A DNA stretch of 63,088 nucleotides, counting the filler, from Asterionella formosa (taxonomy: Eukaryota), in NCBI GenBank assembly GCA_002256025.1. It is 29 parts of 29 records of this genome, joined end to end, with 100 filler letters (N's around TTAATTAATTAA, not from the genome) between each part and the next. Parts side by side here need not be neighbours in the genome. Positions count along the whole stretch, not along the records: positions 34,904 to 36,981 come from NKIB01000481.1; positions 37,082 to 39,158 come from NKIB01000482.1; positions 39,259 to 41,335 come from NKIB01000483.1; 26 more parts are not named here. The stretch is one strand, 5' to 3'. Made by a program: the position numbers and the translations under genes. Under the pieces are notes generated by a model. That model searched no databases. It saw only the letters and a program-made list of their open reading frames with translations, and was not told where the DNA came from. Shown in pieces: positions 3,075 to 63,088 of this stretch; position 1 is the first letter of the stretch, and the number at the start of each line of letters is the position of its first letter.

Positions 3075-4493
3075 ATTTCCTATGATTGGATTGGACGATG
3101 TCATAACAATATGGATATACTGTCGTTTTTTGCATTTTAATGAAACAGTGGTCACTATACTACTAGCTTACCAGTGTACCGGTAGTAGGATTGTGGGGTA
3201 CTGTAGATGAATGGTAGTGCCCCAAAGGCAACAAGGGATTTGTTTGTCCTTTCTGCAAGGACGAAAACATCTCCAGCACGTTTCAACCAACCAGACAAAA
3301 CAAGAAGTGAAAGGAGGGCCTCAAGACTCCACAGACATGCATCATTACTGGTTCATAGTTTGTTTTGCAAATACATCCATGACACAACCCTGATGGCCTC
3401 CCTTGCAGAAATCACTCATATGGTCTAAAAGCCTACTGGTAGGCAAATTTAACATTGCAGTAACTTCTTCTAGGTACAGGTAAGGTTGTAATGGCAACTT
3501 CCAATAATTTGGCCAAAGTTCCATTATTGATGCAGTCAATGTTATAGACAACAAAACTTGCAGTTTTGAGGATTGTGGTTTTCAAGTGCTGCTCATTTTA
3601 TTAATCAGACTTGTTGGCAAGAGAGATCTATTTCTTGCATAGGCTATGATTGATCCACCATTCTTGAGCAGGATGCTGCCTGTGTTTGTTCATGCATGTA
3701 TTGGATGGAATGCTCATGGAGGAATGATCACTTCATGTCAAGAATGTAGTACATTATGTGCCTCCTTTTGCTCATTATTTAATACATCTTCCAAACCAAC
3801 AAAACATGTCATCCCTACATCTCATTCGAGTTTGTATGTACTGTCCTGTCCTGTACATATGAAGAAGTGCTCCATGTGTCTTGACATATGTAGGAACAAT
3901 GACTTTGCTCCTTCCATGTAGCGGTAGTACATAAGTGGGCGCGCTCTGATAAAAAATTATAATGTCATCTGTATTATAACACAAATCGGGTACTTACCAG
4001 GTTTACCAAATTTGGTCAACACAAACACAAATTTTTTACAGTTATAAATAACAGTGCATTATATAAAAAGATGTTTCGGCATGAATGACTAAATAGAATT
4101 TCCCCGGAATATTTCAAGACTTGCTTGCTCATACTCAAAATGGCTTGCTCTTGCCAAAATAGGTATGCATATTGCATATCATTACATATCAATCAACCTC
4201 CTCAAAACATCGATTGTCATCGCTTTTAGATTTCGACCATGTCTCGATCTTCTTCTGTTCAAAGGAGAGCANNNNNNNNNNNNNNNNNNNNNNNNNNNNN
4301 NNNNNNNNNNNNNNNTTAATTAATTAANNNNNNNNNNNNNNNNNNNNNNNNNNNNNNNNNNNNNNNNNNNNGTTTGCATGTTAACATGCATATTACTAGA
4401 AAACTGGGGAGGTACAACAAGGGATTTCATTTCATGACAAAGCTATTAGAGGTGATGGTATTACCCAGTCTATACAAGGCAGTATATATACTG

Positions 4494-8742: not shown

Positions 8743-8982
8743 TTGATGCACGAATGGAGCACCCGTCAGATCGACTTTCCATTGGCGTAACCTCAGGCAG
8801 ACGCCAAGTGCGTATTGTACATGAAGATACCTCATGGTTTTCAAGTTCCAGAGGGAGGTCGATCCGACCACTGCCGCAAGATCCTTAAAAACATACATGG
8901 TGGTCAGAAGCAGGCTGGACGGAAGTGGTCTCAACACCTGACCAAGGGACTGCTATCGGTAGGGTTTGCTCAAAGCTCCTCC
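8743..8982 (+). mobile_element. Copia reverse transcriptase fragment, cut by repeat family AB
   Basis: Reads TRQIDFPLA*PQAD..LYMKIPHGF...LKNI(H)G..KQAGRKW..HLTKGL.SVGF with a stop and a frameshift. Confidence 0.8.
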
Positions 8983-9620
8983 GTCTGTAAATAAAAAAAT
9001 CATGCATATAGAATCAAGGGTATCGTACGCTAAGTGGCACAGGATTTTCGCATATATGATAATTTTTGGATCAAAAATATGATCAAGGAAAATTGTATCT
9101 ATGATGATTTATTAATATGTTACCGACCTTGAAGTATAATGATAATAAGAGCATTATCATCACACAATGTATATAAACTGATCAACAACATTTCTCGTCA
9201 ATATCATTAACCTTCTCATATTATTTTCACTTCTCGTGATCGCCTGATGTAAATTATAACTACAATGCATCCTAAAATCAGCTAAACTATATGCTATCAT
9301 TTGAATTGTTTCATCGTATATCTATTTTAAATAAGATCATATTTATAATTACAAGGATTGTTAAAAAAGGGTTGGAACGGATCTTAATTTAATTATCAAG
9401 TTTAACAATGATATTTCTGTTTCGACAGCTACCCAAGGAATGTTTCTCACCTCTCCACTTGTCTCAATGTATATTCCTTCCTCGCTCTTTCTTCCTCTGT
9501 TCTGAATCGTGTGCGAGGCAGTGCCTTACTGATGCTGCGTCTCTTTCCCTGCTGTAAGTGTCATTCTGAACTTGCCGACTATTCCGTTGTTTGATTGTTT
9601 TTATTGTCCTATGCATGCAG
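8983..9620 (+). repeat. Non-coding dispersed element AB, left part (copy 1)
   Basis: Closely similar to 50557-51190 and 61923-62560. All three start at GTCTG(T/C)AAATAAAAA. Confidence 0.9.
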
Positions 9621-10825
9621 TGGAGAATGCTTGCTTATTCCATGTGGTACCGTAGACATATTTTAATATCTCTGAAACCATATGGGTTTGATCAATAGTC
9701 ATACAATTGGGGCTAAAGAGGAACCGAAGGCCAAAAAATGTGAGACAATTCCCAAGTTATGAACCTTCCAGTGAGATTCTAAGGTGGCAACAATGTGCTT
9801 GTATGTAGTGACAGAATGTGTTCCAATGAGGATATCATCAGTAGCTCTGGCTATAATGACATGGTGAGTATTCATAATTCCTTGGTAAATGCATTGATCT
9901 GCTCGATTCTTTACTAGTCCAAGTTCCCCACATATGACTTTGTCAATATGGTCTCCCCATTCACGGGATGCATCTTTGCGACCTTGAACATGTGCAAACA
10001 TTTCGACTCCAAGAGTTTTCCATGGATATTTGTTACTAGCCAGGAGTGTTTTAGTCATTGACACATATTCAGTAGGGAATCTAGTTTGGAACCATAGGAT
10101 GTACTCAGGAAACACTCTGAGCCAAATGCGATTGCCAGCTTCATTGGGAGGTGCTGGGGTATTTTGAAATGCATTGCTAATATCAAGATGGTAGAAATCA
10201 CAATGCAGATATGTACCAATGGCAAGAAAAACTTTGATAGACATAGCCAAGATGGTTGGTGCAAAAGATTCAGTGTAATCTACTCCTTTGATTTGGAAAC
10301 TGCCATTCACACAGAGGCGAACTTTGCGATCATTGATTTGTTTTGCAGTATTAAGGACATGTTTGAGGACCAGTAAAGCTGGAAGTATCGTTGCATTGAC
10401 AGGAGGGAGTGATGGAGGTCCAAATTTTCCAATACTGTGACAACTATAGTTCTGCAGTCCACTCCCCTTTAAATGGTCCTTTCATTGCTTCGTGAAAAGA
10501 GCGAGGGCATTGGCTGGCTGGCGTAGAAGTTCTCGAAGAGACTGTGAACCCTGATCTGAGCATACTGAGAGCACCTGCACCAAAAGTGAAGGTGTCATGC
10601 CATAGAGCATTAGCGCGAGGTTTCTTCACAGACAGGATGGTCAAGTTTGTAAGAATACCAGGGACAAAGTGAGGATCATAGTGATCCCTTAAGGATAAAC
10701 AACCACGGGTTGCGCTCTCATATCCATCTAATAACTCTTCTGCATCATTTACCGTTTGAACATCATTACCGTTAATCTGTAACAGAATGCGACCACGGAG
10801 TAATTGCGTAGGTCCTTTGGTCATA
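9621..10825 (-). mobile_element. Divergent Copia pol fragment (PDZ-like segment and RT), degenerate
   Basis: PRSFHEAMKGP, NGSFQIKGVDYTESFAP, HLDISNAFQN, QGRKDASREW, RATDDILI. Contains stops and frameshifts. Confidence 0.85.
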
Positions 10826-34903: not shown

Positions 34904-36231
34904 AAACTTACCGGTACATTTTTGTCATCTTAACTTTGAGAGAAGGTAAACGTTTTGTCAGCTTTGTTCCAACAGAAGTGAATAGGTCCAACGAGCGACA
35001 AGAGCACTTACGCAATTTGGTTTTGTTTTACATTGGTGCTCCCCAACAAGCGAAATGAGCTGTTTAATCAACTGAGAAAAAAGGAAATGTGCCTGCGTTT
35101 AGTTAACAATTTGTTGTTGTCCTGCCTCCCAACGATTGTCATCCAAGTAGCTACCACATTGATGGCTTCATTACCTTAAACATTCTCCATCCTTCGAATG
35201 CGCAATGTGTCGAAGTCACAATGTTTTTCGTTATGTATTGCGAAAATTTTCTTTTCTTTTAATGTGCTTTACTACGACGTATCTTTTCATGAAGCAGCAG
35301 GCATTGTTTGTTAACATGAAAGAACAATTTCAAAAATATATATGCCATGCATATAGAAATAAAATTTTTAAATATATATATATATATATATATATATTAA
35401 GTGTTATAGATTTATAAAATTCAAACGCGCTCTCGATATGGAACATCTGATATGGTTGAGATGATCATACTCGCATATACATAATTCGAAAATATTCAAT
35501 GCACTATATTTCCATTGTTTTCCACGACTACGTGTACCGGAATTGTTTCTGAAATTTGTTTGCATCGATATTTTCTACGTCCGTTGAATCTAATTATTTA
35601 GACCGTTAAAAAGCCGCCAGGGTTTTGGTAGCAAATTGTTTAAGCCCCTTTTTTGGTCGGGAGCTCTTCATGTGTACCGGTACATCATATGACAATAACA
35701 ATATATCATATATATATACAGAGTACCAGTAGCAGGTAGTAAGTGATATACTGGGGGTAGTCGGAGTAGTAAACTAGCAACAGAACACCATATGTTCAGG
35801 ACTGTTGCTACTGCAGTGGGACAGTAAATCATCATAGTTTTAGGATCGTATGATCATAAAACTAAAAACCAAAAGAACACCATATGTTCATGACTGTTGC
35901 AATTACATTGGGACAGTAAATCATCATAGTTTTAGGATCGTTTGATCGTAAAACTAAACATAAATAGAACACCATATGCTCATGAATGTTGCAATTACAG
36001 TGGGACAGTAAATCATCATAGTTTTAGGATTGTATGATCGTGAAACTGAAAAGCGGTACCGGTAGTCAGAGTAATAAGCAAGCAATAGAACACCATAGTA
36101 AATCATCATAGTTTTAGGATTGTATAAATAGAACACCATATGTCTATGACTGCTGCTACTACAGCGGGACAGTACCGGTACCGGTAAATGAATTTAAGAT
36201 CATCGAACTTTAAGGAAGACAACGACAACAG
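34904..36231 (+). repeat. Element AB, right part, with ~92-bp subrepeats (35782-36172)
   Basis: Near-identical to 39259-40288, 51375-52215 and 62745-63088. The end TTTAAGGAAGACAACGACAACAG is shared with ~57311-57333. Confidence 0.9.
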
Positions 36232-36569
36232 CTGGTCGTGTTGCTGGTCCACTTTTAATGGCCAAAGAAGGAAGCGACGAAAAGATCACCATCACGAGCG
36301 GAACGAGAGAAATCGCTTACGACGCCAAGTCTGGACGATTCTTTGAGACTAACTTGCAGGAAGAAGAATGCATTCCTGACGAGGAATACTGTGTCGTCGA
36401 TCCGGAAAGTGGGGAACTCATTCGTCTCACAGTAGCCGAAAAGGAGCGTATCTTTCTGGACGCGCTTCAGTCCTACTATGCCACTGGAAGGCAAATGCTC
36501 AAGGATGACGAGTTTGACCTATTGAAGGAAGATTTGCAATGGAACGGATCTGACATGGTTGTCATGAAT
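36232..36569 (+). pseudogene. PGRL1: PGR5-like 1 gene fragment (N-terminal stromal part), truncated
   Basis: EKERIFLDALQSYYATGRQMLKDDEFDLLKEDLQWNGSDMVVMN matches the PGRL1 motif E.E..FL.ALQSFY..G...M.NEEFD.LKEEL.WEGS.VV. The coding similarity stops abruptly and there are no TM helices. Confidence 0.85.
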
Positions 36570-37081
36570 GTTTCTTCCTGTTTGTGATCAATATCCCATC
36601 GATCCATTCGTTCTCGCAAATGTTTTACTCGATGCCACCAGTCGAAACGATTGAGGTAATGAGTAGATATTGGCAGGACGCGCAGACGTTGGAGATATAT
36701 AGAAATAACAGCCTCTGCAAATGCATTGTTTCATAGATACGAAATTAGTTATCATTTACTAACAGCTAGGTATATGTGTTACGGTTAGATCTCTTCCATT
36801 TCTCCTTCAAACTGCATCATATTTCTCCGAACACTACTACCCGTAGTAAGGTAATGTTCATAAGGTAGATGAACATTTTCTTCTCTTGCAGCAGCATATC
36901 TTCTGTTCAGCTCCTCAGTATGGCAAGCTCGTTCCCTTATATTGTAAGCAGAGAAATTGCCCGATGTCTCAGCATAGCACTNNNNNNNNNNNNNNNNNNN
37001 NNNNNNNNNNNNNNNNNNNNNNNNNTTAATTAATTAANNNNNNNNNNNNNNNNNNNNNNNNNNNNNNNNNNNNNNNNNNNN

Positions 37082-37670
37082 AAGTGGCAGCAAGCCCTTC
37101 TGCTTCAGCAAGTGGCACATTGTTGTTGGCATTCGAAGGCAAGTTCTGATGCTCTGTAGGTGCCTTCTTTATCGACTCATCTATAGAAATGGATTCAGTG
37201 GGATTGCTGTCACTTGGTGTTGGCTTTGTTGGGGAAGAGGGATGTTGTCTGTGGTCCCTCTTGGCCTCAACCAGTTTTTGAATATCATTTAGTAAATTAC
37301 TATCAATTGAATCATCTCCGAGTTCAAGTGTAGTCAAGACAGTATTGACCTTGAGAGCCTCTGCAATGGCCTTGGCTCCGTCATCACCAATTGAATTATC
37401 AAAGAGATTAAGTTCAGTCAAGACAGTATTGACCTTGAGAGCCTCTGCAATGGCCTTGGCTCCGTCAACACCAATTGAATTACTATCGAGATCAAGTGTA
37501 GTCAAGACAGTATTGACCTTGAGAGCCTCTGCAATGGCCTTGGCTCCGTCATTACCAATTGAATTCTCATAGAGATAAAGTTCAGTCAAACTTGGATCAT
37601 TCGCTTTCAACCGTTCGACATATTTTTCCAATTCTGTTTCTTTCTTCTTTCGACGAAAAGCTTTTAGCAT
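37082..37670 (-). CDS. NLRC3/RNI-like LRR protein (28-aa repeats), 5' part
   Basis: LKANDPSLTEL, then three 84-bp units LxLxxNSIGxDGAKAIAEALKVNTVLT. Confidence 0.85.
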
Positions 37671-37951
37671 TGTCAATGTCGTCTTGAATGTAATGAGAGT
37701 TGTCTTTGGTTTATTCGGTTTATTCGTGCGACTTCTTTGTTTGGTTCTTGTTCGTGTCTCGTCGTCGTTGTCGTTGTCGTGATTGAATTCTGCTAAAATA
37801 GTTTCTCTATGACTTGTCGCAGAATTCTACGATGCAACTCATTATTGCTCCTGCATGATAGATGGAAAATGCCGAGAATTTTGTCGATCCTCATTGGTAC
37901 CAGGTACCTGGTGAAGTATCTAACTAGAAGTAGTAGTATTTGTTGAATATA

Positions 37952-39158
37952 TGAGCTTATTAATTAATCCTTATGTATAACTCATTTCCTGAACTGACAT
38001 CAAAGTATAGAATAGGTGTTAGTCGAGTTCTCTCATTATTGAATTCCGATATATTTGACATAACCCCAACTCTATATATATCTGTATCGATGTGCAGGAT
38101 TGCTCACTCTCCCACACTTGAGGGAAAACATTTTACCTATGAAAAGGTTTGATACGACGAATATTAATTCGTTCGGTAATATGCATAGTGCGTTGAAAAG
38201 TAACTGTACCATTGGCATGTACTTGAATAATAGTATAAGGACCTCGTCCACGATCATCCAAAGTAGTAGGATTATCCAATAATATTAAAATCTCGTCACC
38301 CACTTTGTAATCATAAGATCGACGACGGAAATTTGCACGACGTAAACGTTCGTCAATTATCACCTGTCGACGTTGATGTATTAATTGTAAATCTGTAATC
38401 AAAGGAATATTTAATATCATATCACGTTGGAAAACCCATGCTCCTGGTGAAATACGTAATATACTATGAATAGTAGCTCGAGCTGCATATGACGCAGCTG
38501 CAAAACATGTATCCACAATATTTTGGGCTTGAAATTCATTGATTGGAGGATGAGCCTTTAACATAACTCGTAGACTATTGCTGATAGATTGATGGAAACG
38601 TTCACAGATAGCATTTGCTTGTGGATTCTTTACTGTGGTAGTCACATCTTTGATTCCATTCAATACTAACATGTGTAAGAAAGGAGCACCAGTAAATTCA
38701 CCTCCATTGTCATGTATACAACGTTCTGGACGGGGATATCTGGCTAACCAATCATTTTCAAATTTCATTGCAATATATTCTGATGTTTTATTGGTGATAC
38801 GTGAAATTTCTGCTAAATTGGTGACTGTGTCAATACAAGTTAGAGCACGAAATTCAATCGTTTGAGCAGCCACTGTTATCTTCCATGGACCAATTAGATC
38901 TACTGCGACTTCTGACCATGGTAATAATAATGCATTCCTGGGTGGAAGTTCACCAAAACCAGTACCAGGTAATTTTGTACGTTGACATGCTTCACATACT
39001 CTTACAATATGTTCCACTCTTGTTTTTAATATAGGGTGATAAAAATGTGTAGCAATTGTAGCATTTAATCTTGTCATACCCACATGAGCTAACATCTGAT
39101 GATACCAATTAATAATAGGATCCAATAATGATGTAGGAATAGCAATACGCCAAGTATC
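37952..39158 (-). mobile_element. Ty3/gypsy 3' end: integrase (38133-39158), purine tract and putative 155-bp 3' LTR (37952-38106)
   Basis: HHCC (YHQMLAH...CEACQ), VAVDLIGPW, IHDNGGEF, NPQANAICER, GPY module. GGGAGAG precedes an LTR bounded by TGAGC...GCTCA. Confidence 0.88.
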
Positions 39159-39258
39159 NNNNNNNNNNNNNNNNNNNNNNNNNNNNNNNNNNNNNNNNNN
39201 NNTTAATTAATTAANNNNNNNNNNNNNNNNNNNNNNNNNNNNNNNNNNNNNNNNNNNN

Positions 39259-40288
39259 TCGAATAAAACTTACCGGTTCATTTTTGTCATCTTAACTTTG
39301 AGAGAAGGTAAACGTTTTGTCAGCTTTGTTCCAACAGAAGTGAATAGGTCCAACGAGCGACAAGAGCACTTACGCAATTTGGTTTTGTTTTACATTGGTG
39401 CTCCCCAACAAGCGAAACGAGCTGTTGAATCAACTGAGAAAAAAGGAAATGTGGCTGCGTTTAGTTAACAATTTGTTGTTGTGCTGCCTGTCTCCCAACG
39501 ATTGTCATCCAAGTACCACATTGATGGCTTCATTATATTACCTTAAACATTCTCCATCCTTCGAAGGCGCAATGTGTCGAAGTCACAATGTTTTTCATTA
39601 TGTATTGCAAAAATTTTCTTTTCTTGTCATGTGCTTTAATACAACGTATCTTATCATGAAGCAGCAGGCATTGTTTGTTAACATGACAGAACGATTTCAA
39701 AAATATATATGCCATGAATATAGTAATAAAATTTGTAAATATATATATATATATATTAAGCGTTGCACATTTTATAAAATTCAAAGGCGCTCTCGATATG
39801 GAACATCTGATATGGTTGAGATGGCCATACTCGCATTTACGTAATTCGAAAATACTCAATGCACTACCGGTATATGTCCATTGTTTTCCACGACTACCGG
39901 TACGTGTACCGGTATTATCTCTGAAATTTGTTTGCATCGATATTTTCTACGTCCGTTGAAACTAATTATTTAGACCGTTCAAATGCCGCAAGGGTTTTGG
40001 TAGCAAATTGTTCAAGCCCCTTTTTTGGGCGGGAGCTCTTCATGTGTACCGGTACATCATATGACAATAACAATGTATCATATATATACAGGGTACCAGT
40101 AGCAGGTAGTAACTGATATACTGGGGGTAGTCGGAGTAGTAAACTAGCAACAGAACACCATATGTTCAGGACTGTTGCTACTGCAGTGGGACAGTAAATC
40201 ATCATAGTTTTAGGATCGTATGATCGTAAAACTAAAAACCAATAGAACACGAAATGTCTATGACTGCTGCTATTGCAGCGGGACAGTA
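39259..40288 (+). repeat. Element AB, right part (copy)
   Basis: High similarity to 34904-36172, with only about 2 subrepeats. Confidence 0.9.
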
Positions 40289-40399
40289 ATTATACCGGGA
40301 AAATTTGGTACATCACCCGTTATCGTGCGTTGCAATGGCCCGCGACAGGGTGGCTGTGGTTATGGAGCAGGGGGTAGAACGCCACAACATGACGAAGTC

Positions 40400-40740
40400 C
40401 CAAGGATCATGAATGGGAAGAAAACTTTGCTGCATTCTGGTGGTACCATTGAACTTGGGAAACAGCAAGGAAGGTTGTATCCCGCCGTATCAAACGGTTT
40501 CGAATAAGAGAAGTTGGAACGAAGAGATGTGACAAGAACTGACCTGACACTTCTGTCCGACTTGGTCGATGGATGTCTCCCGCCTATTTGTAACTTCCTG
40601 CGCAACACAACAAAACTTGCCACAACGACGAATCAAACGGGTTTCGAATATGAGGAGTGGTTGGAACGAAGAGACTTGTCATAAACATGACACTTCTGTC
40701 CGACTCGGTCGATGGAGCAAAAGAAACGACACCAGTGTCC
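40400..40740 (+). pseudogene. Possible degenerate helicase-associated (HA) repeat gene fragment
   Basis: DHEWEENFAA, RRIKR twice and DTSVRLGRW twice, spread across frames. Confidence 0.35.
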
Positions 40741-40864
40741 GGTTATTTGCAAATGGCTGTACTTGATTAAAAACAAACAACCATTTTGTTAGTAACTATT
40801 TATGAGTAAATAAAAATTCTTACTTCCATCTTTCCCCATAGGAATCAAGCAAAAACGAAAGTGG

Positions 40865-41047
40865 TCCTGACGAGGAATACTGTGTCGTCAATCCGGAAAG
40901 TGGGGAACTCATTCGTCTCACAGTAGCCGAAAAGGAGCGTATCTTTCTGGACACGCTTCAGTCCTACGATGCCGCTGGAAGGCAAATGCTCAAGGATGAC
41001 GAGTTTGACCTATTGAAGGAAGATTTGCAATGGAAGAACGGATCTGA
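40865..41047 (+). pseudogene. PGRL1: Second PGRL1 fragment
   Basis: Matches 36375-36553 with 4 substitutions and one 3-bp insertion. Confidence 0.88.
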
Positions 41048-41435
41048 GCATATATATAGCAATTTAGTAGCGAAGTCACTCCGCCTGTAATGTACAAAAG
41101 TCGACAATGCACATACCGGTACTCACACGCTAATCAGGTTTGAGGCAACGGACAGTGGTTCCAACGAACGAATGATGATACCACGGGTACCAATTTTTCC
41201 AACGAAAGAACTTGTCTCTCTATTGATGAGGATGACACGGACACCGACTTTTCCAGGAGCAAACAACAATGAAGAGACCCACTTCGTCTGCGTCGCTCTA
41301 TTGATGGTAACAAAGATGCGGACAAGTTCAACAGTNNNNNNNNNNNNNNNNNNNNNNNNNNNNNNNNNNNNNNNNNNNNTTAATTAATTAANNNNNNNNN
41401 NNNNNNNNNNNNNNNNNNNNNNNNNNNNNNNNNNN

Positions 41436-50556: not shown

Positions 50557-51858
50557 GTCTGTAAATAAAAAGTATCATGCATATAGGATCAAGGGTATCG
50601 TAAGCTAAGTGGCACAGGATTTTTGTATATATGATAATTTTTGAATCAAAAATATGATCAAGGTATCTTGTATCTATGATGATTTATTAATATGTTACTG
50701 ACCTTGAAGTATAATGATGATAGGAGCATTATCATCACACAATGTAAATAAACTGATCAACAACATTTCTCGTCAATATCATAAACCTTCTCATATTATT
50801 TTCACTTCTCATGATCGCCCGATGTAAATTATAACTACAATGCATCCTAAAATCAGCTAATTTATATGCTATCATTTGAATTGTTTCATCATATATCTAT
50901 CTTAAACATGATCATATTTCTAATTACAAGGATTGTTAAAAAAGGATTGGAACGGATCTTAATTTAATTGACAAATTTAGCAATGCTATCTATGATTCTA
51001 CAGGCCAGCAACCCAACGTTTCTCTCTCTACTTGGCTCAATGTATATTGATCCTGTCTTGCCCTTTCCTTCCTCTATTCTGAATCTTGCGCCATGCAGTA
51101 CATAATGTCTTGCATTTCTCCCTGCAATTAGTGACACTCTGAACTCACCGACTATTCCGTTGTTTCATTGGTTTTATTGTCCTATGCAGAAACAGTAACA
51201 ATGAGAAGGAATGATTGGTTAGCTAGTCATGTTACATTGACACAACGACACACAATTCCACCGTATCCTCTTGCTTCACTTACCACAAATCAATGCAACT
51301 GATGCATAAGTCTATTATAGTAAATTGTCAGTAAGCCAAACTCTTGAATAAGTACGTTTCGGGTATCCAATGTTGTCGAATAAAACTTACCGGTTCATTT
51401 TTGTCAGCTTAACTTTGAGAGAAGGTAAACGTTTTGTCAGCTTTGTTCCAACAGAAGTGAAAAGGTCCAACGAGCGACAAGAGCACTTACGCAATTTGGT
51501 TTTGTTTTACATTGGTGCTCCCCAACAAGCGAAACGAGCTGTTGAATCAACTGAGAAAAAAGGAAATGTGGCTGCGTTTAGTTAACAATTTGTTGTTGTG
51601 CTGCCTGCCTCCCAACGATTGTCATCCAAGTAGCTACCACATTGATGGCTTCATTACCTTAAACATTCTCCATCCTTCGAATGCGCAATGTGTCGAAGCC
51701 ACAATGTTTTTCGTTATGTATTGCATAAACTTTCTTTGCTTGTCATGTGCTTAACTACGACATATCTTTTCATGAAGCAGCAGGCATTGTTTGTTAACAT
51801 GACAGAACGATTTCAAAAATATATATGCCATGGATATAGTAATAAAATTTGTAAATAT

Positions 51859-51889
<31 letters not shown>

Positions 51890-52215
51890 TAAGTGTTATA
51901 CATTTATAAAATTCAAAGGCGCTCTCGATATGGAACATCTGATATGGTTGGGATGATCATACTTGCATATACATAAATCGAAAATACTCAATGCACTATA
52001 TGTCCATTGTTTTCCACAACTACCTGTACCGGTATTGTTTCTGAAATTTGTTTGCATCGATATTTTCTACGTCCGTTGAAACTAATTGTTTAGACCGTTC
52101 AATTGCCGCAAGGGTTTTGGTAGCAAATTGTTTAAGCCCCTTTTTTGGTTGGGAGCTCTTCATGTGTACCGGTACATCATATGACAATAACAATATATCA
52201 TATATATATACAGAG
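50557..52215 (+). repeat. Element AB (left and right parts contiguous)
   Basis: Joins the 8983-type sequence to the 34904-type sequence in one contig. Confidence 0.92.
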
Positions 52216-56665: not shown

Positions 56666-56895
56666 TGTATTTCATTTGTCGAAGTCGTGTCTCTGCATGG
56701 TTGTGCCAGAATTGCTGCAGTCTTCGAGCGCACACCATTGCTTGCCAGATTCACTAGGATGCGATCATAACAGCTTGCGGCATCATTATCGACGACTGCC
56801 AGTGTTAATCGTTGCTGCCTCGATATGTCATACGTTATAATTTTTTTGAATAGTACATCCATGGTGCTGCGATTTTTATGGGAGCCCTGCATCAT
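56666..56895 (-). mobile_element. Non-LTR retrotransposon RT fragment
   Basis: QGS...ST.D...K.ITYDISRQQR..LAVVDNDAASCYDRI (RT subdomain 2-3 motif). Confidence 0.75.
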
Positions 56896-57333
56896 GACAA
56901 TAACAATATATCATATATATATACAGAGTACCAGTAGCAGGTAGTAAGTGATATACTGGGGGTAGTCGGAGTAGTAAACTAGCAACAGAACACCATATGT
57001 TCATGACTGTTGCTACTGCAGTGGGACAGTAAATCATCATAGTTTCAGGATTTTATGATAGTAAAATAGAAAGAGAGTAGTCGGAGTAGTAAGCGAGCAA
57101 CAGAACACCATATGTTCATGACTACTGCTACTGCAGCGGGACAAAACAAGATATGCTACAACTCAAACTCGGTTCTTATTTTGTATATGATAATGTAAAT
57201 AGCACTGTTGGTTTTATGGTATCATATCTAGACAGCGTAAAATATTATATGTAGTGGCTGATGATTCATTTCACTGTAGCTAGCAACACCTTATTTAAAG
57301 ATCATCGCACTTTAAGGAAGACAACGACAACAG
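56891..57333 (+). repeat. Element AB, right terminal part
   Basis: ATGACAATAACAATATATCATAT...AGAACACCATATGTTC...AAGGAAGACAACGACAACAG, as in 35690-36231. Confidence 0.85.
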
Positions 57334-58324
57334 TTATCTAGTAGTACTATGTCTTCAAAAAAAATAAAGAGGTTCATGGAAGCAAAGAAGCGACATGTGG
57401 CAAATACTGCCGGTATGGAACAAAGAAGCAAGTACCAAAATGAGTTAACAGAGAAAACGCGAATAGGCGATTATCCAAAGGAACCCAATTGGCGACAACA
57501 GGGAGTTAGTGGGGGTACTAACCCATCGTCGATGGGGACACCATCAGCTACTAGTACAGAGGATCCCGTAATAGATAGTGAAATCAATGATGACGTTTCT
57601 TGTTCAGTTGTTAAACAAGAAAAATGGCTCCTGTTGATGATACCATTAATAACTCCCGGATGCAGATGGACGACATGGTATCATTTCATAAATTTTCCAC
57701 TTGCGCAGACCAACAAGCAAGTACATGACAAACTGAGGGAAAAAATTTTGCACTTGCCAAAGGATATTATCAATTGGTCAATGAACTCAATGAGCAGCCT
57801 TATCAGAACGTTGTTCCCGCTCAGCTAAAATTGAACCAAACCATTAATTGTAACAAAGGGTGTGAGTTTTATTTTAAAGACCAAGAAGTTTTCCTGTGAA
57901 CATGTAAGTTTGAGGTTATAGTTCGTGAATTGCAGGTACTGTAAAACAGAATATCAATATAATTTTCTTTTTTTTCTGCTCCCAAAAGAGAATCAAACAT
58001 CCCGCCCTATCTGGTCCAAGTAGTATGAAGGCATTTCCAATCACAATTAGCGTGTATTTGTTCCTTGAAAAGTTCAACTGAAATGAAAAATTCATAAACG
58101 TATGTTTTTGGCAAGAGGAGACACCATATGAAATGATACAACTGAATTGAGCGTTGTTGAATTTCATAACATACTTTCGGCAGCATTTTTTGTAACTGCT
58201 TTGAAACCGCATGAATCAAGGAAGTCTCTGAATTCGCAAGATCTTATGGAACAGATACAAAAAATTTAATTTTGGATCTCTTCTCTTGGGCTGCACTCCT
58301 CATGTCATTTGGAGAATTGTTTAT

Positions 58325-59990: not shown

Positions 59991-61294
59991 AATGAAAATT
60001 GAACATGATGTTTGGAGCAACCAAAGTATGAAATGCGATGTAATAAGTAGCATCAAATGAGAAATAGAAAAAATTGTTTTGGGTTAGAAATGAAATAAAA
60101 AATAAGAGTTCCAATGGAGACGTATGCATTGTGAATCATTGTAGTACTTACACACCAGGCAACATTCACTTTCCATCACCACACAATCGAAGACCAAGCA
60201 AAATAAGAAGGGAAAAGCTGAACCCAATCTTGACCTACATCGTTATGTAGCGTTAATGGTCTGGTTTCTGCAACCATGCACATCGCTGTAGTAGCCTGAC
60301 ACAAGTAGCAGTATTTCCGCCACAGTCATTCCTCTCCGCTGCCACCAAACAAGCAACCCTGATCATTCCATTCTGAGCAAGCATGATCGCCATGCTGCTC
60401 CAGCACTATTGACTCTCTCTAGCTGAGTATTCGTCATGTAGCTTCTGATACGAACTCGTAGTAGAAATGTAGCAAAGCGCGTTAGTACAAGAAAAGCATT
60501 GCTTGGCGGCAATATTGACATCATTGTCAACGACTATACAAATCAACAAATACGATCAACAACGGCACAATACCACATCTTCAATGAGTAGTCATTGATA
60601 AATGCATTGGTTCTTATGTAGATATGTACAATCGAAACAAAACGACAGTGCGTAACGACAAACAACGATGGAAGCGATCAAAACAAACCACGGAAGCAAT
60701 CAAATCGGAAAGTCGGCCCCATAAATACGATCTACAATCCACATTCAGTATTCCACTGTTGTACTCACCGATCCGCTTCAACTAGCATAACAAGCAGCAG
60801 ACGATGGGATCAAAGAAAGACAAACGTTGCCTATTGCAAGCCCGAATAGAGCAAAGGCAGGCAAGATAGAGTGAGAACTATATTTGTGAGGACGAAATCG
60901 GGCATACGGTACGTNNNNNNNNNNNNNNNNNNNNNNNNNNNNNNNNNNNNNNNNNNNNTTAATTAATTAANNNNNNNNNNNNNNNNNNNNNNNNNNNNNN
61001 NNNNNNNNNNNNNNTTTTCATTTTTGTTCTTGTAGTTTTATAGTACTTTAAGCAATATTTTGCTTAAACTACCGGTAGAAGTCCTCAATTCACATTCTGG
61101 CTGCTAAATTTATATACCCCCGGTAGACAAACATACCTAGCTACCGGTATACCGGTGAACCTTATTTCATATGTACATACCGTTATAGCTGCCTGCGTCA
61201 CTAATAGAGAAGGAAGGTAAAAAAACCGGGTATGGAACCTATTACTGTACCAGTATTGCAATTCGAAACTTTGGCTTTTGGCTGCAATTCCTTT

Positions 61295-61922: not shown

Positions 61923-63088
61923 GTCTGCAAATAAAAAGTATCATGCATATAGGATCAAGGGTATCATATGCTAAGTGGCACAGGATTTTCGTATATATGA
62001 TAATTTTTGGATCAAAAATATGATCAAGGTATCTTGTATCTATGATGATTTATTAATATTTTACCGACCTTGAAGTATAATGATAATAAGAACATTATCA
62101 TAACACAATGTTTATAAACTGATCAACAACATTTCCCATCAATATCATAAACCTTCTCATATTATTTTCACTTCTCGTGATTGCCTGATGTAAATTATAA
62201 CTACTACGTATCCTAAAACCAGCTCAACTCTATGCTATCATGTGAATTTTTTAATTGTAAATCTATCTTAAACATGATCATAATTCTAATCACAAGCATT
62301 GTTCTAAAAAGATTGAAATGGATCGTAATTTAACCATCAAGTTAAGCAATGCTGTCTATTAATCTACATGCCAGCGACCCAACGTTTCTCTCTCTACTCG
62401 GCTCAATGTATATTCCTCTTTGCTCTTTCTTCCTCTGATCTGAATCGTGTGCGAGGCAGCAGTGCCTTACTGATGCTGCGTCTCTTTCCCTGCTGTAAGT
62501 GTCATTCTGAACTTGCCGACTATTCCGTTGTTTGATTGTTTTTATTGTCCGATGCATGCAGTTACAGTTACAATGAGAAGGAATGGTTTGTTAGCTAGTC
62601 ATGTTACATTGACACAAGAACGCGCAATTCCATCGTATCCTCTTGCTTCACTTACCACAAATCAATGCAACTGATGCATAAGTCTGTAATAGAAACTTGT
62701 CAGTAAATTCTTGAATAAGTAAGTTTCGGGTATCCAATGTTGTGGAATAAAACTTACCGGTTCATTTTTGTCATCTTAACTTTGAGAGAATATAAACGTT
62801 TTGTTAGTTTTGTTCCAACAGAAGTGAATAGGTCCAACGAGCGACAAGAGCACTTACGCAATTTGGTTTGGTTTTACATTGGTGCTCCCCAACAAGCGAA
62901 ACGAGCTGTTGAATCAACTGAGAAAAAAGGAAATGTGCGTTTAGTTAACAATTTGTTGTTCTTGTGCTGCCTGCCTCCCAACGATTGTCATCCAAGCACC
63001 ACATTGATGGCTTCATTATCTTAAACATTCTCCATCCTTCGAAGGCGCAATGTATCGAAGTCACAATGTTTTTCGTAATGTATTGCGA
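61923..63088 (+). repeat. Element AB (left part and start of right part)
   Basis: Collinear with 50557-51725. Confidence 0.92.

Follow-up and report, generated by a model that had tools for sequence, protein, structure and literature searches.

How did a piece of PGRL1, an essential photosynthesis gene, come to lie beside a non-coding repeat on two separate contigs of the diatom Asterionella formosa (assembly GCA_002256025.1)? The window, by which we mean the whole stretch of 63,088 bases analysed here, is made up of 30 contigs of about 2.08 kb each, separated by N/TTAATTAATTAA linkers; two of them, contig A (34904-36981) and contig B (39259-41335), carry both a copy of a repeat that we call AB and, further downstream, part of a PGRL1 reading frame. 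A first-pass annotation had proposed that AB is a gene-capturing transposon in the manner of Helitrons or Pack-MULEs and that PGRL1 travels as its cargo. The explanation we regard as probable, with some reserve, is a different one: a single chimeric retrocopy derived from PGRL1 messenger RNA (mRNA) was multiplied by tandem and segmental duplication and reshuffled, and A and B are decayed derivatives of it, set in a highly amplified and unstable region of repeats.

The evidence comes from the window, one metagenome scan, protein collections, and four public runs (DNA runs X1 and X2; RNA runs X15 and X18), which were compared with contig A alone; X1 is probably the source sample and X2 is an independent run. 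Five metagenome contigs (L001-L005), from five data sets, were retrieved by a 30-nt PGRL1 pattern. Residues are numbered according to P0131, a full-length PGRL1 of 330 amino acids with an N-terminal signal peptide.

PGRL1 pieces and the series of forms around them

The pieces in the two contigs are nearly identical, as had been noted at the outset: 36374-36556 of A and 40865-41051 of B align at 95.7% identity with 4 mismatches and 2 gaps, and the four resulting differences (D94N, A115T, Y120D and T122A) are indeed all non-synonymous. The frame of A matches diatom PGRL1 proteins, and over residues 38-150 of P0131 the identity is 100% for the L004 piece and 97.3% for that of A. Both pieces lack the targeting or signal peptide and the C-terminal half (A is without residues 1-37 and 151-330), and neither therefore has the full length, the targeting peptide, or the C-terminal membrane and Cys-rich half of a functional PGRL1. 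The full-length P0131 exists as a protein, and a polyA RNA contig (X18) continues at 36568 into the true sequence NRKEATYLAAM. A glutamate shared by A and B (SGELIRL) was considered as a derived marker and rejected, since full-length P0131 has Glu there too.

The two pieces were thought to stop near the same codon, and on this point the sequences disagree: A ends after MVVMN, and B some five codons before that point, at ...GGATCTGAG/CATAT. Each of these 3' ends recurs in other public contigs. GTTTCT, which follows MVVMN in A, was tried as the start of an intron and rejected, because members of the protein cluster read through the site to a stop codon; as they read MVVMN/RKEATYL, the 3' end of A is a break inside exon 2 and not an exon border.

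A true intron position is nonetheless indicated nearby. Twelve diatom genomic PGRL1 open reading frames (ORFs), namely P0106, a relative with 93% identity, and 11 proteins from the longest contigs among 120 listed, all read ...ERIFLD(A/S)(L/I)Q and then pass into unrelated sequence starting with V. Reading that breaks off into V-initial sequence is what a GT donor gives, and this points to a conserved intron after Gln117. At the same site DALQ/SYY is contiguous in A, B, L001, L003, L004 and L005 (L002 ends just past it). Pieces without an intron after DALQ would descend from spliced mRNA and, like processed pseudogenes, have lost the introns of their parent; they do not fit with capture at the DNA level by a Helitron or Pack-MULE.

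What the pieces were joined to is seen at the end of AB. The PGRL1 reading in A starts exactly at the shared end of the repeat, ...ACAACGACAACAG at 36231, as first described, and the 24-mer that forms this end is found in the window only at 36208-36231 and 57310-57333, where chance would give none. The end itself, ...CTTTAAGGAAGACAACGACAACAG, occurs twice in the window, leading into PGRL1 at 36231 and at 57333 into TTATCTAGTAGTACTATG..., the start of a 159-codon frame that we call ORF-X; because it continues there into different sequence, the shared end is real. In the public runs the start of ORF-X follows 36231 in 90 X1 contigs, 2 X15 contigs and 1 X18 contig, and the last 60 nt of AB (36172-36231, called e) are found close to an end of a 3,673-nt polyA RNA contig (X18 record 19). 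Since RNA and DNA contigs thus run from e into ORF-X, the end of AB is the 5' leader of a multicopy ORF-X gene and normally continues into that gene. Contig A instead has PGRL1, from codon 38 and in matching orientation, attached abruptly to the leader with one base in common, so that parts of two transcripts are joined in the arrangement of a template-switch chimera. The idea of PGRL1 as cargo of the AB family accordingly needs to be divided: the pieces were multiplied together with repeated DNA, and a role of AB as their carrier is not supported, its last 60 nt being the ORF-X leader.

The metagenome contigs supply further forms. L004 has leader e on its 5' side, as in A, and the A-type 3' end followed by a gene that we call Y, and is 99.0% identical to A over 795 bp. 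L005 shares the A-type 3' end and gene Y (99.89% identity to L004 over 2,716 bp) and enters PGRL1 at codon 86 from the tail of a module D, as does B; L001, L002 and L003 combine the D tail at codon 86 with the B-type 3' end and are about 98% identical to B. The sequence of about 575 bp ahead of the piece in B, set down at first as repeat-like debris, is present as described and is this defined module D, shared with all five metagenome loci; nothing resembling it was seen in the remaining contigs of the window, and in L005 it sits between gene Y and a further gene, Z.

L005 also shows how a junction of this kind can arise. The last 82 nt of D are found there twice, at 1-82 and 3327-3408 (99% identity, spacing 3,326 bp), with PGRL1 codon 86 next after one copy and gene Z after the other. 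Such a repeated D end is the signature of a tandem duplication, with D-end/codon 86 as its new joint. A second direct repeat with a novel junction comes from the records P0133 (JGI) and P0170 (ENA), which begin with the sequence of 36632-36682 (100% identity), continue with e, starting at 36201, and go on to PGRL1; the back-joint 36681>36201 implies a putative 481-bp unit, made up of the leader, the PGRL1 piece and a further 113 bp, that in some copies is circular or repeated head to tail. Through these shared junctions A, L005 and B form a series, and two separate captures are not supported, A and B being linked by the L005 intermediate and the 3,326-bp tandem duplication. ACCGGT/GGTACC motifs are repeated at several of the junctions and ahead of the ORF-X leader.

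The DNA upstream of D differs among copies, being a segment called preD in L005, L002 and L001, 92-bp tandem units (T) in B, and an exon of gene Y in L003; AB is also present upstream of D in L002. As all three lie upstream of D in the order given by L004 and L005, simple internal deletions suffice to produce these arrangements. On this reading the nearness of AB to PGRL1 in B would be the outcome of a deletion of about 2.9 kb in the array, which fits, on only about 180 bp, with identities over AB 783-965 of 99.4% between A and L002, 96.7% between A and B, and 95.1% between A and the ORF-X-linked copy. Past the B-type end, B reads ATATA at 41052 where L003 (reverse strand) has about 565 extra bases beginning ACCGGTATATAGC, in which no terminal inverted repeat (TIR) was seen.

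Copy number, decay and order of events

A search for proteins of near length yielded 16 clusters of fragment ORFs from the species group, with 113 member sequences. By their 3' ends five clusters are A-type, four B-type and three MVVMNRK/HT, and four are frameshifted earlier; a long 5' part is combined with a B-type end in 3 of the 16. All four combinations of 5' and 3' junction thus exist, which requires that copies have recombined with one another. Of the 16 clusters, 11 contain an internal indel or frameshift. The short copies show six distinct substitutions, every one of them non-synonymous, four being G>A and three of these at CpG, a pattern that, in small numbers, appears to agree with neutral decay.

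Contigs aligned to the 2,078 bases of A number 192,870 in X1 and 4,326 in X2. Summed depths reach 1.2-3.0 million (X1) and 73,000-318,000 (X2) in the PGRL1 bins and 0.7-8.6 million (X1) and 62,000-925,000 (X2) in the AB bins, these being sums of Logan contig depths, which are not copy numbers and have no single-copy yardstick beside them. The PGRL1 bins are as deep as their flanks, and a variant base at 36264 occurs in 105 X1 contigs. This behaviour is unlike that of a single-copy piece: the pieces are many-copy passengers of repeated DNA.

Among the RNA libraries, X18 contains the D/PGRL1 junction and the true NRKEATYLAAM continuation and X15 the B-type end, so that the pieces and the true gene both appear in RNA data; the empty X18 bins at 36234-36373 carry no evidential weight. 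Two public 'PGRL1' models of the species group, P0001 and P0133, start in the ORF-X leader and not in a signal peptide, and are probably chimeric assemblies or chimeric copies.

We infer the following order of events. Spliced PGRL1 mRNA would have been reverse-transcribed, and the copy from codon 38 on joined to the ORF-X leader e, either by a template switch or by insertion and repair. The copy would have been cut short at codon 150, beside the 3' end of the convergent gene Y, and the resulting block multiplied by tandem and segmental duplication rather than by transposition. The 3,326-bp duplication would then have produced the D/codon-86 junction and the 481-bp unit the back-joint, with internal deletions and recombination between copies giving rise to the other forms; contig B would represent an array in which some 2.9 kb lying between D and the T repeats was lost, by which AB was brought beside D and a short PGRL1 piece.

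Several points weigh against this account. The intron is predicted from the relative with 93% identity and from other diatoms, the PGRL1 of this species not having been seen as DNA, and every copy is either 3'-truncated or runs off its contig, so that any poly(A) tail or target-site duplication is out of view. With each of the four junction combinations represented, more than one order of events would fit. The depth sums, read as just stated, give the multiplication no absolute scale. The 3' part of P0133 may stem from a chimeric assembly, and the metagenome contigs may represent different strains, in which case some of the 'copies' would be orthologous loci. Finally, the AB family looks mobile, with three unrelated flanks to the left of its upstream module U (described below), and may help to spread units that bear PGRL1.

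The pieces are most likely without function. A more consequential reading is that repeat-borne PGRL1 RNA, from thousands of copies lying partly tail to tail with gene Y, feeds small or antisense RNAs that tune or threaten the single true gene; we consider this improbable, although if true it would mean that a repeat acts as a brake on the regulation of photosynthesis in a diatom.

Retroelement, transposon and artefact as alternatives

The mobile appearance of AB bears most directly on a retroelement origin, in which U, AB, T, e and ORF-X together would be a retrotransposon, PGRL1 mRNA would have taken the place of ORF-X behind the leader by abnormal template switching within a particle, and the chimera would have spread through retrotransposition in trans. 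Such a process would leave what is seen, an intron-less piece joined, in matching orientation, immediately after the leader of a polyA RNA that is 3.7 kb or longer, and the mechanism has been described for long terminal repeat (LTR) retrotransposons in the passages of PMC13317346 drawn on here. The summed depths of the e bin and the first PGRL1 bins are of the same order in two DNA runs, and the U terminus has three left flanks, one of them inside an ORF with a weak RVT_2 match. However, ORF-X encodes no reverse transcriptase, gag or Pfam family, and its relatives are only short ORFs: a phmmer search of 1.84 billion proteins returned 28 related clusters, nearly all short ORFs, with no known family and no longer relatives. 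No LTR pair, direct terminal repeats, primer-binding site or tRNA match was found in the DNA examined, the other end of the element being outside it. The PGRL1 piece is moreover followed not by element sequence but by a convergent gene on the opposite strand, and one array can yield every PGRL1 context seen. Because the U terminus suggests a mobile AB family we keep the retroelement origin as a possible, though distinctly less likely, explanation than duplication of a single retrocopy.

Capture at the DNA level by a Helitron or a Pack-type TIR transposon, with PGRL1 lying between the ends of an element, is very unlikely. Gene pieces do adjoin a repeat on several contigs, as this proposal would have it. 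Helitrons have 5'-TC...CTRR-3' ends with a 3' hairpin and are inserted between A and T, and one copy of D, which starts TCTATT and ends CTAG/T, presumably resembles such ends; yet it has no hairpin, and its junction with PGRL1 is accounted for by the 3,326-bp tandem duplication. AB terminates in ...CAACAG followed by C or T, which is not CTRR, and no hairpin lies close by. Inverted repeats of at least 14 nt flank the PGRL1 piece in none of A, B, L005 and L002, where the scan returned AT-rich palindromes and, in L002, a single unrelated hairpin but nothing else, and the 14 distinct ORFs compared with Pfam include no transposase, Rep/helicase or reverse transcriptase. The absence of the conserved intron from the pieces likewise speaks against the Helitron or Pack-MULE capture first put forward. 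Rfam and tRNA scans were empty, and viral contigs contained neither the PGRL1 30-mer nor the AB end.

That A and B are alleles of one locus, or products of assembly or amplification, is barely credible: the assembly is very fragmented, with contig ends that overlap by 127 nt, and De Bruijn assemblers can form chimeras across shared repeats, but the same junctions recur at 98-100% identity in the five metagenome contigs, in X2 DNA and in the RNA libraries, and A and B, whose allelism the first-pass annotation had named as one outcome that would undo its proposal, differ in both flanks of the PGRL1 piece and occur, together with an intermediate, in independent data sets.

Features of the window and relation to known systems

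The features of contigs A and B and their relatives in the window are collected in Table 1. AB is a dispersed repeat, with pieces in five of the 30 contigs (A, B, 51383-52215, 62750-63088 and 56890-57333); its copies at 34904-35919 and 39266-40289 align over 1,038 columns, and in both A and B it is followed by the T units. Module U extends it by about 0.8 kb further upstream in three contigs of the window, and the points at which A and B start are consequently assembly breaks and not an end of the element. The U terminus (GTCTGTAAATAAAAAG...) begins GTCTG(T/C)AAATAAAAAG at 50557, 61923 and 8982, each time behind an unrelated left flank, and at 8982 it interrupts the ORF with the weak RVT_2 match (7e-6); this start looks like a true element terminus.

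Table 1. Features discussed in the text, with positions along the window.
Feature	Position	Strand	Basis or remark
U1, 5' part of U alone	8982..9621		left end cuts ORF with weak RVT_2 match
AB body, contig A copy	34904..35777		91.6% to B, 94.1% to 51383-52215, 92.2% to 62750-63088
T, 92-bp tandem units	35778..36171		3 full units then partial ones, closing with ACCGGTACCGGT; Tandem Repeats Finder (TRF) and sequence reading
e, last 60 nt of AB, ORF-X 5' leader	36172..36231	+	RNA contigs; same end at 57333
PGRL1 pseudogene piece A, codons 38-150 of P0131	36231..36569	+	tblastn to P0131, 97.3% over 113 amino acids
Spacer past 3' break of the PGRL1 piece in A	36570..36654		stretch 36632-36682 recurs ahead of e in P0133 and P0170
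Gene Y 3' end, transcribed, apparently multicopy, converging on the PGRL1 piece	36655..36981	-	X18 record 24 (887 nt), X15 record 16 (1,253 nt)
AB body and 1.5 T units, contig B copy	39259..40289		alignment to A
D module	40290..40864		98.4% to L005 2832-3403; in L001, L002, L003, L005
PGRL1 pseudogene piece B, codons 86-145 with inserted AAG and four non-synonymous changes	40865..41051	+	alignment to A
W, right flank of B-type piece	41052..41335		same flank in L003, behind about 565 extra bases
U and AB copy	50557..52215		U = 50557-51382
Partial AB, T and e, third contig	56890..57333		terminates in identical ...ACAACGACAACAG
ORF-X first exon, 159 amino acids, usual partner of the AB end	57349..57825	+	run comparison
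U and AB copy	61923..63088		window comparison

The 5' part of AB in contig A (34904-35113, about 210 nt) lies within an exon of a minus-strand spliced polyA RNA, with a loose end of RNA at 35007. PolyA RNA contigs connect ...ATGCATAAGT with CGGTTCATTTTTGTCAT across a minus-strand GTAAGT..AG intron at the AB 5' edge, and by this joint a spliced antisense transcript has part of AB as an exon. The module joint ATTGC-N4/5-GCAAT, which belongs to another family in this genome, had a single match in the window, away from the features of A and B and at chance level. In L002, at 2121-2542 upstream of its AB copy, two nested near-perfect inverted repeat pairs, with arms of 104 nt and 98 nt that are 95-96% complementary, form a hairpin-type element.

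Gene Y, which lies behind the A-type 3' end, is convergent, transcribed and multi-exon, appears to be multicopy, and has ORFs that extend into L004 and L005; it had no match in Atlas. In L005 it occupies 496-2498 and gene Z 3366-4160, both on the minus strand, and both are transcribed or open and multi-exon; gene Z has, by eye, an HxD...H pattern. No Pfam family was recognised in the exons of gene Y, gene Z, the ORFs of D and W, the PGRL1 piece or ORF-X, matches to RhiE_B and Sen15 being weak and below cut-off. Elsewhere in the window, the contig at 37082-39158 carries an ORF of 84-bp period resembling leucine-rich repeats and, downstream of it, a long minus-strand ORF that by eye resembles a retroelement integrase, and the end of one contig (15064-15190) is identical over 127 nt to the start of another (61015-61141), which are assembly-graph neighbours with an overlap of k-mer type.

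The case is ordinary in kind, being that of a pseudogene, and notable only for its scale; it would be more only if the pieces yielded small RNAs against the true gene. It indicates how part of an essential photosynthesis gene can be amplified in a repeat-filled diatom genome, probably to very high copy number, and that such pieces introduce chimeric 'PGRL1' models that have no targeting peptide, such as P0133 and P0001, as contaminants into protein databases and assemblies of metatranscriptomes. For annotation, only the full-length P0131 type should be accepted as PGRL1, and estimates of PGRL1 expression in this species will be inflated by RNA derived from repeats.

Amplified PGRL1 pieces were not met with in the literature on diatom PGRL1 pseudogenes, among the matches listed. 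Several known systems bear partial likenesses to what is seen here. Pack-MULE, Pack-TIR and Helitron elements, as treated in the relevant portion of PMC13317346, hold gene fragments in multicopy non-autonomous DNA that is often transcribed, as are the PGRL1 pieces; in contrast, they copy genomic DNA between defined ends, whereas the PGRL1 piece has no intron, TIRs or Helitron ends. The same portion describes abnormal template switching in the LTR retrotransposons Veju and BARE-2, which places foreign RNA sequence behind the 5' region of an element in a comparable way, although the AB/ORF-X family shows no LTRs, gag or pol. In Pseudocercospora fijiensis, according to an excerpt of PMC6710886, histone H3 is present within a hAT element in hundreds of copies rendered inactive through repeat-induced point mutation (RIP) while the original gene is intact. 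That case shares with ours a host gene at high copy number in repeats, with inactivated copies and an intact original; it differs in that H3 is carried by a complete hAT element with its ends, whereas PGRL1 is present only as an mRNA-derived piece for which no transposon ends or transposase were found.

Chimeric retrogenes produced through switches of RNA template in the course of reverse transcription, such as WEIRD/MGL/Mg-SINE in Magnaporthe and their mammalian counterparts (PMC2104539, in the sections used here), offer a further comparison, the part played by the machinery of long interspersed nuclear elements (LINEs) in those chimeras being shown by flanking direct repeats and a poly(A) tail. 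There, as here with the ORF-X leader and spliced PGRL1 mRNA, two different transcripts are joined head to tail, both pointing the same way, and the chimeras are transcribed, non-functional retropseudogenes. Compared with the cases in those sections, the copy number of PGRL1 looks far higher, and its later spread seems to have taken place by duplication.

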